Below are positions 57,076 to 64,000 of a stretch of 64,000 nt of DNA, in pieces (position 1 is the first letter of the stretch; each line of letters opens with the position of its first letter). The notes under the pieces were generated by a model that saw only the letters and a program-made list of their open reading frames with translations, was not told where the DNA came from and made no database searches. This DNA comes from Bacteroidales bacterium (GTDB lineage: Bacteria > Bacteroidota > Bacteroidia > Bacteroidales > UBA4417). The stretch covers positions 927-64,926 of the forward strand of contig JBBRCH010000016.1 of assembly GCA_038204995.1 (NCBI GenBank). Reading direction: 5' to 3'. Position numbers and translations under genes: made by a program.

Positions 57076-59691
57076 TCAGAAAATTATCGCATACGATACT
57101 TTAATGAGGAAATCGTTCTGTGGATGCGTTTTAACTATCTGATCGGAGTATTTATTGAACATAAACTGCCCTTCAGGCCCATCTGTAGTGCGCCCCTGCG
57201 ACCAAACCAGGAAAATTGTTGACCCCGGCATATATTCCCATCGGAAAACAAGATTTGACCTGTACTGAAGAAAATGAAAATCGGGATCATCGAAACTGAA
57301 ATCCGTTTTATTCCCGTCAGTATCCACATTGTATACTGCCGATTCACTGTTTAACTGAATCTCATTACTGCTGTATTCATGAAACCTGGTATAATAATCA
57401 GATGCATCAGGATTGGTGATGGTTTTAAAATGAGAATAGTGGCCCGAGAAGAAGAAAGGTTGACCGTAATATTGTATTGACATGTCGGGTGTAATACCGA
57501 CATTAACCCGCGCCGAAACAGAAAATTGTTTGCTGTCGAGGCGGCCCATAATATAGTTATCGGGCCCGTTTCCTTCGATTGTTGTTACATATTGAAGATT
57601 ATCCTGAGAAGTATTGAATTCGGGTGAGAGGGATATTGAAACAGTATTAACTGGTTTGTAGGTAAGCGAATATTGAATCAGTGATAAATTTGAATTATTG
57701 TATTCACTCCACCGGTTCATCACGAAGAGACTCATCTGAAGTTTTTTTCTTGAGTCACTGTCGAACCCTATGCGGTATGTAAAATTGGCTGGTATCTTAA
57801 GTGTTGGGCCGCCGCGTAAATCATATGCTGATAAGGAGTTGCCCTGGAGATTGAATCCTGAGAAGATAGTATAGTAATTTTTAAATTGAAGGTTTCCATT
57901 CATCTCAAGCCCTTTATATACATTCTGTCCGCCGAAATTCCAAACCGTATAAAAGTCACCGCCGATATTATAGGAATTATAGAATTTCTTAGGTTGCCAT
58001 TCATTATATCCAAACCACGCTACCTGCTGGATGTTATCTGCTTGCAGCATAAATCCCAGGTCGTTGAAGTCGAGTCCGGGTGATGACCAGGTAATCCATG
58101 AGAGCATCCTGAAATGCCCCCCGCCAAACTTACCGAATTCGAGGGTGCCTCCTTGCCCGCTCAGGCTGGTTCGGGTACTGTCAACTTTCAGGTATGTAGC
58201 ATCAGGTCTTTGAAAATTATGTGTAAAAGTCGTCTGCAAATCCGTTATGGCTTCTTTTGACCCATATATGCTGCTGAATATACCTCGTACTGTAAAAAAA
58301 TAATTCTTGTTATCCCAAAAGCGGGTCATATTTATCCCCCCGGTATAAGCTGAGGCAGGGAGGGTAATGAAATTTTCGTGATTAATATCGCGGTTTGTGG
58401 CGGTCAATAAGCCTCCTACAACAGTATTACCTTTATCGATATCCTGTTCGACCCTGGCGACCATATAATTGGTAAAAGGTTCAACGGGATATTTGCTTCT
58501 TATGCCTGCTATTTCGAGATCTGCACTTTCCTGCTGTGTAAAAGATTCGAGTATACCAATCGAAGTACCTTTACGTGTTTTTCCGGATAATTTGAATGCC
58601 CCAAGAATACTTGTGTTAGCAGGAATTCTGGCATATTCATTATCATTAAGTTCAGGCTCAAAATGAGGGGTACGGCCTATACGCCTTGAATAGAACATAC
58701 CAGTACTGGAACCATCACCATCACCCGAGGTCATCCTGAAGTTAAATATATTTCGTCCTTCGATAAAAAACGGTCTTTTCTCAGGGAAAAATGATTCGAA
58801 TGCCGAAAGGTTCACCTGTGAAGGATCGGCTTCCACCTGTCCGAAATCAGGATTTACTGTCATGTTTAAAGTCAGGTCGTTGGTTATGGCAATTTTACCG
58901 TCAATACCGGCCGAGCATGCCTGCTGCTTACCCGTGGCAAAAGGATTTCCTTCTTCTTTTTCATTACGTGTCATCTTAGCCAAGGCAAAGGGTAAGATTT
59001 CGATGTCTTTTTTAGGTGATATATTGCTTATACCTTCAAGAGTGCCGAAATCACTCACCATTTTGTTCGAGTTCCGGTGCAAAGGTTTCCACAGTGATAA
59101 TTCATTTTTCCTGAAAATAAAACGGCCAACCTCAAGGCCCCAATCGTAATTATTTTTCTTTGTAAACCTGATTTGTGAAAGTGGAATCCGCATTTCGGCA
59201 TTCCATCCTTCCGCATCAAAGCTTGTTTTTACATACCATATAGGGTCCCAGTTGTTATCCTCATTGTTATCATTTGTATAGATAATGTCCATTTTTGAGC
59301 CTGCCGCGGTGACCATAAATCCAAACCCGGTGAGTTTATCTTCATAACTGTCAATTATAAGCCCGGCCCAATCACCATCACCGTCATCGCGCCTCGAAAG
59401 ACGTTTGTTGATTTTATCCGGCTCTGTATCATAGGATTTTATAGCAACATATAAGTTGTTGTCATCGTAAAGTATGGCAAAGGTTGTCTTTTGGCTGGGG
59501 AGGGTATCTTCATAAGGTTGGTGCTGGATAAAATCTCCTGCCCATCCAACCTGTTTCCAGCAATCTTCATCAAATATTCCATCAATTGACGGTGGTTTTG
59601 ATGCTAATTTTTGGGTGGTATAGGTTTGGTTTTGTGCAAATACAAAATGTGGGATCAATATAAGTATCAGAAAAGGTAGTATTCTTGACAT
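57076..59691 (-). CDS. CBM9-like plus DUF5916-type outer-membrane protein
   Basis: PSIDG..DE..W, YDDNNLYV, W.AEMRIP (CBM9-like); NPDFGQVEAD, EKRPFF.EG, FYSRRIG; beta-barrel-like C-terminus. Confidence 0.8.
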   Translation of the reverse strand: MSRILPFLILILIPHFVFAQNQTYTTQKLASKPPSIDGIFDEDCWKQVGWAGDFIQHQPYEDTLPSQKTTFAILYDDNNLYVAIKSYDTEPDKINKRLSRRDDGDGDWAGLIIDSYEDKLTGFGFMVTAAGSKMDIIYTNDNNEDNNWDPIWYVKTSFDAEGWNAEMRIPLSQIRFTKKNNYDWGLEVGRFIFRKNELSLWKPLHRNSNKMVSDFGTLEGISNISPKKDIEILPFALAKMTRNEKEEGNPFATGKQQACSAGIDGKIAITNDLTLNMTVNPDFGQVEADPSQVNLSAFESFFPEKRPFFIEGRNIFNFRMTSGDGDGSSTGMFYSRRIGRTPHFEPELNDNEYARIPANTSILGAFKLSGKTRKGTSIGILESFTQQESADLEIAGIRSKYPVEPFTNYMVARVEQDIDKGNTVVGGLLTATNRDINHENFITLPASAYTGGINMTRFWDNKNYFFTVRGIFSSIYGSKEAITDLQTTFTHNFQRPDATYLKVDSTRTSLSGQGGTLEFGKFGGGHFRMLSWITWSSPGLDFNDLGFMLQADNIQQVAWFGYNEWQPKKFYNSYNIGGDFYTVWNFGGQNVYKGLEMNGNLQFKNYYTIFSGFNLQGNSLSAYDLRGGPTLKIPANFTYRIGFDSDSRKKLQMSLFVMNRWSEYNNSNLSLIQYSLTYKPVNTVSISLSPEFNTSQDNLQYVTTIEGNGPDNYIMGRLDSKQFSVSARVNVGITPDMSIQYYGQPFFFSGHYSHFKTITNPDASDYYTRFHEYSSNEIQLNSESAVYNVDTDGNKTDFSFDDPDFHFLQYRSNLVFRWEYMPGSTIFLVWSQGRTTDGPEGQFMFNKYSDQIVKTHPQNDFLIKVSYAIIF

Positions 59692-60035: not shown

Positions 60036-61187
60036 ATGAAAGAAAAAACCCTCAACATACGGATCATTGAAGTTTTTGTATTTGTAGTTATCTGGGTGGC
60101 TGTGTTTGCCGTTCCTTTTTTTAACCGGCGAATTTCAAATGAAATTGACTGGAATAAAGTGTTTGGCGAATGGATCACCATGTTTTCATTATTGCTCATT
60201 TTTCTCTTAAATACACTTTGGTTAGTACCCGGATTTTTATTCCGAAAAAAATATCGTTCCTATTTTATTTACACAATCCTTTCCATTCTGATAGTAATTG
60301 CCTTGAAAATATACCTAGGAACGGTTATCACCTCTCCGCAACCTTTGGCAATGCCGCCCATGGAACTGGGACCGGGAATGCCCCCAATGGAATTAGGTCC
60401 GGGAATGCCTCCGCCCATGGGGTATAAGCCTGTCACACCACCGCCGCCGAAATCCTTATTCATGATCTTTATTGACAACCTGATCCTATCCCTTTTGGTT
60501 GTTGGTATGGGGACAGCAATTAAAATGGTATCGCAATGGCTCAACGAGGAAAGCAGGCGAAAAGATCTTGAAAAAGAACAGCTGAAGACGGAACTAGCTC
60601 TCTTACGGCACCAGGTTAGCCCTCATTTTTTTATGAATACCTTGAACAACATCCATGCGCTTATTGATATAAATGCGGATGATGCTAAAAACACCATCAT
60701 ACAGCTGTCGACCATGATGCGGTATTTACTATACGACACGGCAAACGGAAAAACCACGCTTAAAAAAGAAATTGCTTTTATCGAAAGCTATATCACATTG
60801 ATGAAGTTGCGCTTTCCTGATAACGTGTCTGTAACCCTTGACGTTCCTGATAAAATTGATGATGTTGAGATTCCTCCTATGCTTTTTATTTCCTTTCTCG
60901 AGAATGCTTTTAAACACGGGGTGAGTTATCAGGCCAGTTCGTTTGTTTCGTTTAAAATAGAACAGAAAGACAGGAAACTGAAAAGTGTTATTAAAAACAG
61001 CAGGCATAACAGCAGCGAACTCCAGGATAATAACTATTCCGGCATTGGGTTGGCTAATATAAAAAAGAGCCTGAAATTGCTTTTCGGGAATGACTACACC
61101 CTTACTATCAGTGAAAGCGAAAAAGAATATGAAGTGCAGTTGACGATTCCCATGTACGAAACTCCCACGTTTGCTGTTAGCAACTGA
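60036..61187 (+). CDS. LytS-type sensor histidine kinase with a proline-rich loop
   Basis: TM region; LRHQVSPHFFMNTLNNI, MRYLLY, ENAFKHG, SGIGLANI. Start is 60015 or 60036, downstream of -7 box TATCTTTG at 59997-60004. Confidence 0.92.
   Translation: MKEKTLNIRIIEVFVFVVIWVAVFAVPFFNRRISNEIDWNKVFGEWITMFSLLLIFLLNTLWLVPGFLFRKKYRSYFIYTILSILIVIALKIYLGTVITSPQPLAMPPMELGPGMPPMELGPGMPPPMGYKPVTPPPPKSLFMIFIDNLILSLLVVGMGTAIKMVSQWLNEESRRKDLEKEQLKTELALLRHQVSPHFFMNTLNNIHALIDINADDAKNTIIQLSTMMRYLLYDTANGKTTLKKEIAFIESYITLMKLRFPDNVSVTLDVPDKIDDVEIPPMLFISFLENAFKHGVSYQASSFVSFKIEQKDRKLKSVIKNSRHNSSELQDNNYSGIGLANIKKSLKLLFGNDYTLTISESEKEYEVQLTIPMYETPTFAVSN
60351..60422 (+). repeat. 27-bp in-frame tandem repeat (MPPMELGPG x2 plus MPPPMG)
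   Basis: ATGCCGCCCATGGAACTGGGACCGGGA / ATGCCCCCAATGGAATTAGGTCCGGGA / ATGCCTCCGCCCATGGGG. Confidence 0.85.
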
Positions 61188-61263: not shown

Positions 61264-61983
61264 ATGACAATAAAATGCATAGCCATTGATGATGAGCCCC
61301 TTGCGCTAAAGCAAATAAGTTCTTACATCGAAAAAACGCCCTTCCTCGAAGCTGTGGCACTTTGTAAAAGTGCTTTCGAAGCCATGGAATACCTGGAGGA
61401 TAATGAAGCAGATCTTATGTTTGTGGATATCAATATGCCTGATTTGAACGGTATGGATTTTGTCAAATCCCTTGCACAGAAACCACTCATTATTTTCACT
61501 ACGGCATATAGCGAATATGCCATGGAAGGTTTCCAGGTGAATGCCCTTGATTATATTCTGAAACCGATAAGCTATGCTGTTTTTCTAAAAGCAGCGAATA
61601 AGGCTAAAACATGGTTTGAACTGAATGTTAAACAAACGGAAACTATTAAAACTACTCCGGATAGTCTTTTTGTGAAATCCGAATACAAAATGATCCGTAT
61701 TTTTTTGTCCGAAATCAAGTATATCGAAAGTTCAAACGAATACATACATATTCACCTGGTGAACGAGGATCCTGTAACCACTCTCATCAGGCTGAAAGTA
61801 ATGGAAGAGCAGCTTCCCGGGGACAAGTTTATGCGGGTACACCGTTCATTTATTGTAAATCTCGACAAGGTGAAAGTGATTGAGCGGAACAGGATTATTT
61901 TCGATAAAAACGTTTATATCCCGGTTGGGGATCAGTACAAAGAAAATTTCCAGGCTTTTGTTGACAGGACATTTCTGATTTAG
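61264..61983 (+). CDS. LytTR-family response regulator
   Basis: IAIDDEPLA, FVDINMP, LDYILKP; LytTR domain FMRVHRSFIVN. Confidence 0.95.
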   Translation: MTIKCIAIDDEPLALKQISSYIEKTPFLEAVALCKSAFEAMEYLEDNEADLMFVDINMPDLNGMDFVKSLAQKPLIIFTTAYSEYAMEGFQVNALDYILKPISYAVFLKAANKAKTWFELNVKQTETIKTTPDSLFVKSEYKMIRIFLSEIKYIESSNEYIHIHLVNEDPVTTLIRLKVMEEQLPGDKFMRVHRSFIVNLDKVKVIERNRIIFDKNVYIPVGDQYKENFQAFVDRTFLI

Positions 61984-62005
61984 CCCGTCAGGTCATTTCT
62001 TTTTC

Positions 62006-63034
62006 TTATTTGCGTTGCCGGCGAAGCCCGGAAAGCACTTTCTCATATCCAAATGTCAGCAATACCGATACGGTAAAAATGCCTGCAACCCACCAGGGGA
62101 ACGTGCTCAACTGCTGGGTTTGATATATTGCTGTTGCCAGGTTACCTATAATCAGCCATTGTATTACATAGAACGCAGTTATGTTTTTCCCTATCCGGCA
62201 TAATAAAGTTCTGATACGCGTTTCGGGAATGTACGTGATGAAAACATGAAGGAAAAGCGTCCACAATACGGTTAAGCCCAAAGCCCAGAAAACATATCCG
62301 AAAGTATGATGATAATATGCAGGCAGGTTTATGGTAGTACTCAGCCCTTGCTTATAAAACAGACCAACTGCGGCCGCAACCAGGATGGTAACGGAGATTA
62401 AAATACGTTTCTGTTTCAGGAAGAAAGGAATGATTTTCCCATCGTATCGGGCAAATATAAATCCTGCCAGCGGGTAAGCAAGCCACGGGAACAATGGGAA
62501 GTAGGACCAGGAGTAGTTCCCGGCTATAAAGGGCAGAACATAATAATGAGTGGTAACTGTTAGTTTTTCATTTAAAAAACCGGTGAGCACACTAACTGCA
62601 AGGAATACAATCCAGGCGGCCACTTTCTGCCACTTTTTGAGCGATTTTATAATCGATAGAACAACAATACTTAAACCGGCAAGATATAAAATATCGACGC
62701 CAAACATATATTCGAGCGGGTTGTAGGGCCAATCTGCAAATAGTATTTTCAGAAGAAAATGAATATTGAGTCCGATATTAAGCAAAAACCCGAGCATGAA
62801 TATTTTAATTCCCCGCACGATATTTACAGATGTTGTGGCTTTACTCAAAGCAATAAAATAACCCATTACCGCCATAAAGACTACGGCCGCAAAAGGTCCT
62901 CCCAGGAAGAGAGAGATTTTGCCTGATGTACTTTCTCTTCCGGCAGTATCCAGAAAAAGTTCAGTGATATGGATCTGAACCATAAAAAAAGCGGCAAGTC
63001 CTTTGAGTAAGTCAGGAAGAATGTAACGTTTCAT
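62006..63034 (-). CDS. DUF1624/HGSNAT-like integral membrane acyltransferase-family protein
   Basis: R...PDLLKGLA...M.QIH, AAVVF...MG, YFPLFPWLAY...G, GKN....YVIQ. Start placed at ATG 63034. Confidence 0.7.
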   Translation of the reverse strand: MKRYILPDLLKGLAAFFMVQIHITELFLDTAGRESTSGKISLFLGGPFAAVVFMAVMGYFIALSKATTSVNIVRGIKIFMLGFLLNIGLNIHFLLKILFADWPYNPLEYMFGVDILYLAGLSIVVLSIIKSLKKWQKVAAWIVFLAVSVLTGFLNEKLTVTTHYYVLPFIAGNYSWSYFPLFPWLAYPLAGFIFARYDGKIIPFFLKQKRILISVTILVAAAVGLFYKQGLSTTINLPAYYHHTFGYVFWALGLTVLWTLFLHVFITYIPETRIRTLLCRIGKNITAFYVIQWLIIGNLATAIYQTQQLSTFPWWVAGIFTVSVLLTFGYEKVLSGLRRQRK

Positions 63035-63253
63035 CGGCAGATCCTGTTGGAAGTGTTTAACTTTATAAACCGTTAAAAATACGATAAATGAATAAGTTTC
63101 CATTAGTGCGTGGAATATAATTTCCCTGCTGTATCAGAAATAAAACAGCATTTATTTGATTTTACACCAGGCTGTTAACATGATAAATTGCTCTTTACAC
63201 TTATCCAAAAAGGTTGTTTACTGAATTCATTTTACTATCGAAAAGTATGAATA

Positions 63254-63261
63254 TATCTTTG
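63254..63261 (+). promoter_or_regulatory. -7 box (TATCTTTG) of the PqqD/ATP-grasp operon
   Basis: Exact TAnnTTTG match 68 nt before ATG 63330. Confidence 0.6.
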
Positions 63262-63329
63262 TTTTCAGATTACAAACAGAGAAAATATAAAATCACCTTA
63301 ATTCGTCATTCAACTAAAATATCAAAACA

Positions 63330-63575
63330 ATGAAACTTCGAAAAAATATAGCCAGCAGCGAAGAAGGATTTATTTTTAACCCGGGAACAGGAGATTCTTT
63401 TTCAACTAACCCGATAGGAGCCGAAATAATCGCCCTGTTAAAAGAGGATAAAGAATTGCCTGAAATAATAGAGGCAATTTGCGAAAAATATGATGTAGAT
63501 GAAGTGCATTTTGAGAAGGATCTTGATGATTTTGTTTCACAACTGAAGGATTCTTCTATCCTCGCGAATAACTAA
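63330..63575 (+). CDS. Stand-alone PqqD-family / RiPP recognition element (RRE)-like protein
   Basis: 81 aa; beta strands (GFIFNPGTGDSFSTNPIG) then helices (AEIIALL..LPEIIEAICEKYDVD..FEKDLDDFVSQLKDSSIL), the PqqD pattern. Confidence 0.8.
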   Translation: MKLRKNIASSEEGFIFNPGTGDSFSTNPIGAEIIALLKEDKELPEIIEAICEKYDVDEVHFEKDLDDFVSQLKDSSILANN

Positions 63576-63590
63576 TAAACTTAATTGAGC

Positions 63591-64000
63591 ATGGAATCGC
63601 AAGTCGCAAATACAGCAAATCCCTTTAACAAAAAACTCGTAATAGCAGTCACCGGGCTAAATGCCATCGACAGTCCCGGTCCCGGGGTTGCCGTTATCCG
63701 TGCCATACGCGAGTGTTCTGATTTTGATGTTCGTATTGTTGGACTTTCATACGAATCGCTCGAGCCAGGCTCGTATATGCACGACCTGGTTGATAAAACC
63801 TATCATATCCCATATCCTTCAGCCGGAACCGACACACTCATGGCCAGGCTGATGTATATTCATGCTAAAGAGCATATGGATCTGATCATCCCCAATTTTG
63901 ATGCTGAACTCTATAATTTCATCAAATTGAAAGATAAACTTCAGGATGAAGGCATCAATACATTCATGCCTGATTTACAGCAATTTGAAGCCCGCGACAA
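63591..64000 (+). CDS. ATP-grasp-type (carboxylate-amine) ligase, N-terminal part only; runs off the window and is absent from the ORF track
   Basis: Stop-free frame: MESQVANTANPFNKKLVIAVTGLNAIDSPGPGVAVIRAIRECSDFDVRIVGLSYESLEPGSYMHDLVDKTYHIPYPSAG..MDLIIPNFDAEL..LQDEGINTFMP..FEARD; resembles the Rossmann-like domain preceding ATP-grasp folds. The catalytic core lies outside the window. Confidence 0.7.
   Translation, partial: MESQVANTANPFNKKLVIAVTGLNAIDSPGPGVAVIRAIRECSDFDVRIVGLSYESLEPGSYMHDLVDKTYHIPYPSAGTDTLMARLMYIHAKEHMDLIIPNFDAELYNFIKLKDKLQDEGINTFMPDLQQFEARD

Follow-up and report, generated by a model that had tools for sequence, protein, structure and literature searches.

A widespread but patchy six-gene operon of Bacteroidota combines a lasso-type RRE with an ATP-grasp ligase, a PLP decarboxylase and candidate export proteins

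The DNA analyzed here (the window) is a stretch of 64,000 nucleotides from a Bacteroidales bacterium, corresponding to positions 927 to 64,926 of contig JBBRCH010000016.1 (C16) of assembly GCA_038204995.1. Its 3' end holds a small PqqD-family gene, encoding a RiPP recognition element (RRE; RiPP, a peptide made by the ribosome and modified after its translation), and the beginning of an ATP-grasp ligase gene. This pair is the head of a six-gene operon and not a fragment of a graspetide, PQQ or lasso-peptide cluster, and the operon, which is conserved across Bacteroidota, is apparently undescribed. The order of the genes is PqqD-like RRE, ATP-grasp ligase, a pyridoxal phosphate (PLP)-dependent decarboxylase resembling FslC and diaminopimelate (DAP) decarboxylase (DAPDC), a fusion of a urea transporter (UT) to an M23 peptidase (UT::M23), a protein that joins tetratricopeptide repeats (TPR) to an outer-membrane β-barrel, and a periplasmic TPR protein, with start codons that are closely spaced or overlapping along the operon. 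The operon probably makes a small amine-bearing compound that is exported through its own membrane channel and outer-membrane pore.

Gene 1 (63330-63575, + strand) encodes a stand-alone protein of 81 residues that is assigned by the Pfam PqqD family (PF05402) and by a profile of its orthologues, and that lies closest to the B1 leader binders of lasso peptides. Gene 2 (63591-64000, + strand) opens with an ATG 15 bases after the stop of gene 1 and stays open to the last base of the window, which covers the first 136 of its 358 codons; the frame continues for 667 nt past the window, to C16:65593. Both genes had been proposed in an initial annotation made from the sequence of the window, and both were borne out, the second as a complete ATP-grasp protein on the contig in which the quoted peptides IAVTGLNAIDSPGPGVAVIRAI, DLIIPNFDAEL and FEARD are all present. 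C16 extends 1,683 nt beyond the window end, and its own end interrupts the PLP decarboxylase gene that lies 3' of the ligase. The start of a second contig, C105, overlaps the end of C16 exactly over 141 nt and in frame, and carries the remainder of the decarboxylase gene followed by genes for a 736-residue UT::M23 fusion, a 380-residue protein and a 206-residue TPR protein, again with overlapping starts. For this reason, the window's own genome has all six genes. The initial annotation had expected the missing parts of the system, including its precursor, to lie beyond the window; the decarboxylase, the UT::M23 fusion, the outer-membrane TPR-barrel protein and the periplasmic TPR protein are now seen there, and no precursor was found in or near the operon. 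Its statement that pqq, lasso-cyclase and radical-SAM genes are missing extends to the conserved neighborhood of the operon, where none is present. None of the six proteins matches a defence system in PADLOC, and no NCBIfam or PADLOC model claims the operon proteins.

The operon is widespread but patchy in Bacteroidota. A scan of one genome per species returned at least 585 relatives, of which 80 loci were kept, spanning Lentimicrobiaceae, Paludibacter, Prolixibacteraceae, Rikenellaceae, Chitinophagaceae, Flavobacteriia, Hymenobacter, Mucilaginibacter and others. All six genes occur in the same order and on the same strand in 58 of the 80 loci, and 21 of the other 22 end at a contig edge. Of the 80 loci, 77 include the PqqD gene and 78 the decarboxylase gene; of the three without PqqD, L040 and L051 are cut by contig ends and L094 truly lacks the gene. 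In 71 of 77 loci no more than 150 nt separate the RRE gene from that of the ligase, several loci having overlapping starts, and tblastn placed a PqqD gene adjoining and upstream of the ligase in 16 of 16 stretches fetched from relatives, so that the RRE/ligase pairing proposed from a single genome is conserved across genomes. A clade at ~40% identity (L110, L111) still keeps the RRE, ligase, decarboxylase and UT::M23 genes together. With the window's own genome counted, the ligase is found in 28 of 41 related genomes (21 of 24 within the same genus), and an even sampling of the phylum, restricted to genomes with a completeness of 90% or more, shows it in 26 of 300 (~9%) and, with the window's genome and genus again counted, in 22 of 144 genera.

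Inspection of the individual loci also revealed additional genes. A secreted protein of 266-267 residues with a type IX secretion system (T9SS) C-terminal sorting domain is encoded between the RRE and the ligase in Lentimicrobiaceae-type loci other than the window (L015 7320-8123, L023-L028), and some Lentimicrobiaceae-type loci have a DUF2202 gene 3' of the ligase. In just two loci (L016 12021-12251 and L040 2506-2736), a Cys-rich open reading frame (ORF) of 76 codons without a Pfam match separates the decarboxylase gene from that of UT::M23, and an ORF of 121 codons lies between the ligase and decarboxylase genes of L064 (11143-11508) and L068 (11200-11565); we take the latter to resemble the four-helix-bundle '23S rRNA intervening sequence' type of protein. 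One locus, L096, comes from a metagenome-assembled genome (MAG) labelled Bosea thiooxidans, and the label is probably wrong because the layout and sequence of its operon are near-identical to those of the Chitinophagaceae loci L098 and L099.

The small protein is, as judged from sequence comparison, an RRE-type member of the PqqD family of the lasso-B1 kind. Its match to PF05402 (E = 1.4e-14, 54.5 bits against a cut-off of 23.4) covers profile positions 3-66 of 67. A profile built from 61 orthologues and searched against solved structures matched TbiB1 (5v1u, E = 7e-11), TfuB1 (6jx3, 5e-6) and PbaB1 (9x90, 0.008), whereas true PqqD structures reached E values of only 0.5-0.9 (3g2b, 0.54). The alignment with the solved RREs TbiB1 and TfuB1 is ungapped, which supports an RRE fold, and with PF05402 above its cut-off and lasso RREs as the closest solved relatives, nothing in these comparisons suggests that the protein is anything other than an RRE. 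Two residues, N27 and D64, do not vary among the 61 orthologues and, under an assumed offset for the tag of the PDB chain, align with D33/D70 of TbiB1 and with a Gly/Gln pair of PbaB1, 37 residues apart. The available part of a 2026 study describes discrete lasso RREs as recognizing [Y/W]xxPx[L/V/I/F/A] leaders, with N33 and D70 of LppB forming hydrogen bonds to the Pro kink and the Tyr of YxxP and with G42/Q79 of PbaB1 equated with them (PMC13381572). The protein studied here keeps this YxxP-gripping pair, which in such RREs consists of an Asn (or Asp) where β3 ends and an Asp in helix 3. The more specialized models score lower: the two NCBIfam lasso_PqqD models give 32.7 and 28.7 bits (cut-offs 70 and 80), and TIGR03859 (PqqD) gives 18.2 bits (cut-off 46). 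No fused form of the RRE appeared among the longer proteins searched, which counts as weak evidence. A role as a LysW-like carrier with a C-terminal acid was considered and rejected, as the window protein ends in ...ILANN and the acid is absent. A predicted complex of RRE and ligase scored 0.00 in a run without controls, which argues neither for nor against binding.

Gene 2 encodes a full-length ATP-grasp enzyme, of the three-domain fold by its model and family matches, whose catalytic residues are predicted to be intact. The protein exceeds the Pfam cut-offs for ATPgrasp_Ter (42.1 bits against 29.1) and ATP-grasp_3 (39.0 against 23.2), as well as those for Dala_Dala_lig_C and CPSase_L_D2. Its AlphaFold2 (AF2) model (predicted local distance difference test, pLDDT, 84.2; predicted template-modeling score, pTM, 0.83) has as its top solved match 2pn1, an uncharacterized protein resembling carbamoyl-phosphate synthase (CPS) (Z 27.8, root-mean-square deviation 2.6 Å, 290 aligned), with further matches to biotin carboxylases (Z ~27 over ~330 residues), PurD, L-amino-acid ligase (Z 25.1) and PylC (Z 24.8). 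Residues K177, K179, E276, E278, E291, N293 and R295 are the same in all 61 orthologues, and these we take to be the ATP/Mg-binding Lys, Glu/Asn and Arg motif. The initial annotation had raised the prospect that this frame might lack an ATP-grasp core or prove to be an ordinary CarB or cell-wall ligase; the core is present and neither identity fits. All NCBIfam models of the CPS-like, Ddl, CarB and RimK kinds score far below their cut-offs: TIGR01369 (CarB) gives 26.8 bits against 1027, and the protein has 358 residues where CarB has ~1050 and two ATP-grasp units; the Ddl models NF002378 and TIGR01205 give 35.2 and 20.4 bits against 243 and 245.65; and the pseudomurein model Ddl_archaea gives 48.2 against 500. 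As judged by its Pfam matches at E ≤ 0.01, among which no such family occurs, the enzyme is also not a graspetide ligase of the MvdD/MdnC type. Public records of the ligase call it only 'ATP-grasp domain-containing protein' or 'carbamoyl-phosphate synthase large subunit'.

The closest solved relative of the third gene product is the N-citrylornithine decarboxylase FslC (7kh2, 1e-61), followed by DAPDC (5e-42) and BtrK (7e-21). The catalytic PLP-Lys and Cys motifs are kept at 34% identity to FslC. Curated models do not place the enzyme among its relatives: it scores 230.1 bits with the FslC model NF041039 (cut-off 500), no synthetase for nonribosomal-peptide-synthetase-independent siderophores occurs in the operon, and a full-length orthologue scores 217.8 bits with LysA TIGR01048 (cut-off 297.9). 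A separate and better lysA-like gene is present on contig C17 of the same genome (255.4 bits, also below the cut-off). The N-terminus of the decarboxylase carries an invariant M-x-K-x-x-Y-E-R-P-I-I...NKFG, which is of the YxxPx[I/L] type. A YxxP at residue 5-6 is found in 92 of 93 N-termini, a set that includes a few loci of the same genome fetched twice, and FxxP is found in the other one; the motif holds in the 40% clade. As a background, a YxxP-type motif occurs within the first 20 residues of 17 of the 2417 long ORFs of the window's genome. Residues 1-31 lie outside the alignment to the catalytic fold of FslC and DAPDC, and the tail matches no PDB chain. A search for stand-alone peptides like the tail gave 14 short matches, and the four that were inspected are decarboxylase fragments or chimeras.

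What, then, does the RRE bind? We hypothesize that it may dock the decarboxylase's own tail, because the Asn/Asp pair is invariant, the YxxP tail is conserved outside the fold and no separate peptide family accompanies it. Our tentative reading, to which we give somewhat less than an even chance, is that docking of this leader-like tail by the RRE organizes an ATP-grasp/decarboxylase pair that makes an exported amide-amine. In such a scheme, binding of the tail would tether the decarboxylase to the ligase, with whose gene that of the RRE would be translationally coupled. The ATP-grasp enzyme would join a carboxylate by an amide to the distal amine of an amino acid resembling ornithine, lysine or DAP, or vice versa, and the decarboxylase would then strip the α-carboxylate, as FslC does on N-citrylornithine, leaving an amide-linked diamine. 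The small polar product would exit via the UT-type channel and the dedicated outer-membrane barrel, the cytoplasmic M23 domain would trim or release a peptide part, and the LytS/LytTR pair described below would often control expression. A related proposal, that the RRE has been re-used as a protein-docking module which grips the enzyme-borne YxxPx[I/L] tail and assembles the ligase-decarboxylase pair at the channel-peptidase fusion, where the pair would make and export an amide-amine metabolite in much of Bacteroidota, is possible but doubtful.

An alternative hypothesis stays close to the idea of the initial annotation and assumes a RiPP, or a product built on a peptide scaffold, whose precursor is either unlinked to the operon or too short or variable to be detected. 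There, the RRE would present a YxxP leader, the ligase would add an amino acid, the decarboxylase would modify the added amino acid, M23 would remove the leader and the product would be exported. We consider this unlikely, although a good deal is consistent with it. The closest solved relatives of the RRE bind lasso leaders, the pair that would grip YxxP is invariant, all characterized RREs of the PqqD family bind free precursor peptides, and the operon includes both a peptidase and an export route. The search itself might miss such a gene, since the fosfazinomycin precursor of 21/22 residues was, according to the part of the report available, overlooked by an automated short-ORF search (PMC13622209). 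The searches made here argue the other way. A scan of ORFs of 12-110 codons up to 2.5-4 kb from the operon found no conserved small ORF in the 80 loci, and the clusters obtained are shadow frames of flanking genes; no conserved ORF ends at the RRE start and none abuts the RRE gene across loci; and no stand-alone peptide family resembles the decarboxylase tail. Among 1031 purely intergenic ORFs (15-89 codons), the largest cluster is of low complexity and holds 16 ORFs from 13 loci. These scans covered ORFs of at least 12 codons near the operon, unlinked genes and shorter ORFs falling outside their scope. Because no precursor ORF is conserved in the 80 loci, a classical RiPP cluster is not shown. 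The RRE-dependent amide or ester ligation on a peptide or protein that had been suggested for this system is partly supported: the RRE and an ATP-grasp enzyme are conserved together, no precursor ORF is conserved with them, and the ligase is not of the graspetide type. In the window, an ORF of 28 codons (63248-63334, + strand) has a stop that overlaps the RRE start codon (ATGA) and resembles a coupled leader peptide; as a candidate it was rejected, being conserved in no other locus examined.

The remaining three genes supply the candidate export parts. In the gene 4 product, the UT domain scores 174.7 bits with Pfam UT (PF03253) and 111.6 bits with TIGR03441 (cut-off 274.6), and the M23 domain scores 57-60 bits with Pfam. 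Conservation of residues H385, D394, H469, H502 and H504 reaches 95% or more among 61 sequences, and we take these to be the zinc ligands and the HxH motif of M23 (H502-x-H504); the spacing from H385 to D394 is 8, where 3 is usual. The M23 domain is accordingly predicted to keep intact metal-binding and catalytic residues. An Arg/Lys-rich segment follows the last membrane helix and, by the positive-inside rule and with the in-in topology that we assume for UT proteins, the M23 domain would lie in the cytoplasm. A C-terminal stretch of ~230 residues follows the M23 domain, and a search of its last 222 residues against the ESM Atlas (best score 0.78) was uninformative. A YxxP in the UT::M23 linker was considered as a target of the RRE and rejected, as the motif is present in only 21 of 61 sequences. 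An M23 paralogue is also found on contig C23 of the window's genome. Gene 5 encodes a signal peptide, a helical TPR part and a barrel of 14-16 strands (AF2 pLDDT 92.9), with a C-terminus of the outer-membrane type, ...GGxxWK[F/L/I]. Foldseek ranks PelBC first, then OmpG, CymA, BcsC and PgaA, with query TM-scores of 0.41-0.48, and the ESM Atlas gave a YaiO-barrel lead that Pfam did not confirm, while the AF2 fold model did show a barrel. Gene 6 encodes a secreted TPR protein. Elsewhere in the same genome, C5:41827-43248 (- strand) encodes a TPR and barrel paralogue with 30% identity over 487 residues to the distant-clade version.

Could these membrane components serve import instead? The barrel and the UT channel would then take up a small urea- or amide-like solute for the cytoplasmic enzymes to convert. 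Characterized UT proteins are passive urea channels, as stated in the accessible portion of PMC11589576, and the OmpG- and CymA-like barrels are uptake pores. Against this stand the ATP-grasp ligase and the RRE, which are biosynthetic parts; the N-terminal TPR domain of the barrel protein, which resembles the export porins PelB, BcsC and PgaA; and the channel itself, which keeps only part of the Gln-Thr-Thr-Gln urea path, with both Thr replaced by Ser and one Gln lost, as judged from the sequence alone. Uptake therefore appears very improbable. A role in the cell envelope also seems improbable, if less remote. The ligase and decarboxylase would in that case act on peptidoglycan-type peptides, for example by decarboxylating or amidating the free D-centre of peptide-bound meso-DAP, M23 would cut murein, and the TPR and barrel proteins would anchor the machine under LytS/LytTR control. 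All three enzyme families have murein-acting members, the decarboxylase is DAPDC-like, two secreted TPR proteins are present, and there are weak matches of M23 to the MepM, ShyA and Pgp3 models and of the ligase to the Ddl and pseudomurein ligase models. However, each of these murein-type matches falls far below its curated cut-off, the Arg/Lys-rich segment after the last helix argues for a cytoplasmic M23 domain, the patchy occurrence in 26 of 300 genomes is unlike that of core wall functions, and the RRE would be left without a role.

Several observations also weigh against our preferred reading, in which the RRE docks the decarboxylase tail and the enzyme pair makes an exported amide-amine. 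All characterized PqqD-family proteins bind free peptides, which favors the unlinked precursor discussed above. The tail could be a structural arm of the decarboxylase, and similar YxxP strings occur inside folded parts, one example being residue 418 of UT::M23, where 45 of 61 sequences have such a string. Genome G128 (locus L109, in the ~40% clade) keeps the tail and has no RRE adjoining the ligase, with a weaker PqqD-like match on another contig. L094, a contig of a Cytophagales MAG and the sole real exception among the 80 loci, has the ligase alone (65% identity): the 871 nt upstream of it hold no RRE gene and the 3.1 kb downstream no decarboxylase gene. The substrate identities are guesses drawn from the nearest relatives, FslC being only 34% identical, a UT-type pore would fit only very small solutes, and the M23 peptidase is left without an explained role, its cytoplasmic placement following from charge distribution and an assumed UT topology.

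Upstream of the operon, the window encodes a LytS-type sensor histidine kinase (60036-61187, + strand; Pfam His_kinase PF06580, 84 bits), the probable regulator of the operon, and its partner, a LytTR-family response regulator (61264-61983, + strand; Response_reg 73.2 bits, LytTR 74.9 bits). Among the 65 loci whose upstream sequence reaches 2.6 kb or more, 29 have homologues of the pair on the same strand and no further than 4 kb before the PqqD gene, and in several Prolixibacteraceae-type loci the LytTR homologue ends ~50 nt before the PqqD start. This recurrence supports the link to the LytS/LytTR pair that the initial annotation had raised and suggests that the pair regulates the operon. 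The link that it had drawn in the same breath to the divergent gene between the LytTR and RRE genes (62006-63103, - strand; membrane acyltransferase_3/HGSNAT-like, Pfam 54.9 and 49.6 bits) did not hold; because this gene lies upstream in only 5 Lentimicrobiaceae-type loci of the 80, it is not counted in the system. A GNAT gene of the Acetyltransf_3 type takes the upstream position in 24 Chitinophagaceae-type loci. The kinase has a proline-rich tandem stretch, PPMELGPGMPPMELGPGMPPPMGY, between its membrane segments, and paralogous secreted DUF5916 proteins flank the region, one in the window (57076-59691, - strand, 871 residues, 217.5 bits to Pfam) and one in L108 (4680-7307, - strand, 875 residues), with the same flanking seen in related Lentimicrobiaceae loci.

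The spacer upstream of the RRE gene (63104-63329) measures 226 nt and is AT-rich, with 28% GC. The promoter box reported there is weakly supported. Matches of the sigma-70 type in 62900-64000 number 6, against 4.3 ± 2.3 in shuffles, and are not above chance, whereas a single Bacteroidetes-type -7-like motif, TATCTTTG, lies at 63254-63261 (+ strand). It is the sole such motif in the spacer, its background on this strand of the window is 0.44 per kb, and the consensus is TAnnTTTG; we regard it as weak evidence for a promoter. A scan for promoters and terminators found no terminator-like site. Rfam returned nothing at E ≤ 1 over 61900-64000, and there is thus no riboswitch clue.

RRE domains serve as class-independent flags for RiPP clusters. 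In hundreds of species, a lasso-type RRE is here firmly associated with a ligase of the ATP-grasp kind, a PLP decarboxylase and an export route of its own, and no precursor is seen. If the RRE does dock the tail of an enzyme, this would be a new use of a well-studied recognition module and the first natural case of a leader carried on an enzyme, and genome mining based on RREs would not always mark RiPPs. If a hidden precursor exists, the operon would instead represent a new class of RiPP or peptide scaffold, one that involves amino-acid addition and PLP-dependent decarboxylation. Either outcome would point to an exported compound from many Bacteroidota of sediment, soil, freshwater and wastewater. 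The analysis also gives the UT::M23 fusion a genomic context, and a cultured carrier, Hymenobacter edaphi (L095), makes the question bench-testable. The view that the system is undescribed agrees with the open-access full text searched, in which no paper combines these parts and none treats a UT::M23 fusion, subscription journals and supplements being outside the scope of that search.

How does the operon compare with known systems? The lasso B1 RREs TbiB1, TfuB1/FusB1 and PbaB1 are the best solved relatives of gene 1, the leader-binding Asn/Asp pair is invariant here and a matching motif exists in the operon; unlike in lasso systems, no B2 protease, lasso cyclase or precursor gene occurs in the 80 loci, and the candidate motif is fused to an enzyme and not carried on a free peptide. 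Graspetides of the microviridin type share an ATP-grasp enzyme in a peptide-linked context, and some graspetide ligases need partner proteins, according to the part of a 2026 study that was available (PMC13097080). The ligase described here differs in that it has no MvdD-type Pfam match, folds nearest to biotin carboxylase, 2pn1, PurD and PylC, and has no precursor, and the words decarboxylase, M23 and urea are absent from a graspetide survey (PMC8939145). The PQQ and mycofactocin pathways, which make a small molecule from a peptide, likewise combine a PqqD-family chaperone with a peptidase, but they include a radical-SAM enzyme and a precursor that the present operon lacks, and true PqqD structures are only marginal matches to its RRE.

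The closest enzymatic parallels are those of rhizoferrin (FslA/FslC) and butirosin (BtrI/BtrJ/BtrK) biosynthesis, in which a ligase makes an amino-acid conjugate that a PLP enzyme of the DAPDC fold then decarboxylates. The ATP-grasp enzyme BtrJ has a small carrier protein as its partner, and FslA is a different kind of ligase. The butirosin partner BtrI is an acyl carrier protein and not an RRE, and, compared with FslC, the decarboxylase studied here has an extra N-terminal tail and reaches 230 bits against a cut-off of 500. For the route out of the cell, gene 5 joins a periplasmic TPR domain to an outer-membrane β-barrel as the PelB, BcsC and PgaA porins do, yet it is far smaller (380 residues) with a barrel of OmpG size, and the inner-membrane part is a UT-type channel where those systems have a synthase or an ABC pump. 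Peptidase-containing ABC exporters offer an analogy for a peptidase fused to an inner-membrane conduit. Set beside these systems, the operon is best described as a form of RRE-assisted biosynthesis, and the chance that it is something more unusual is real.

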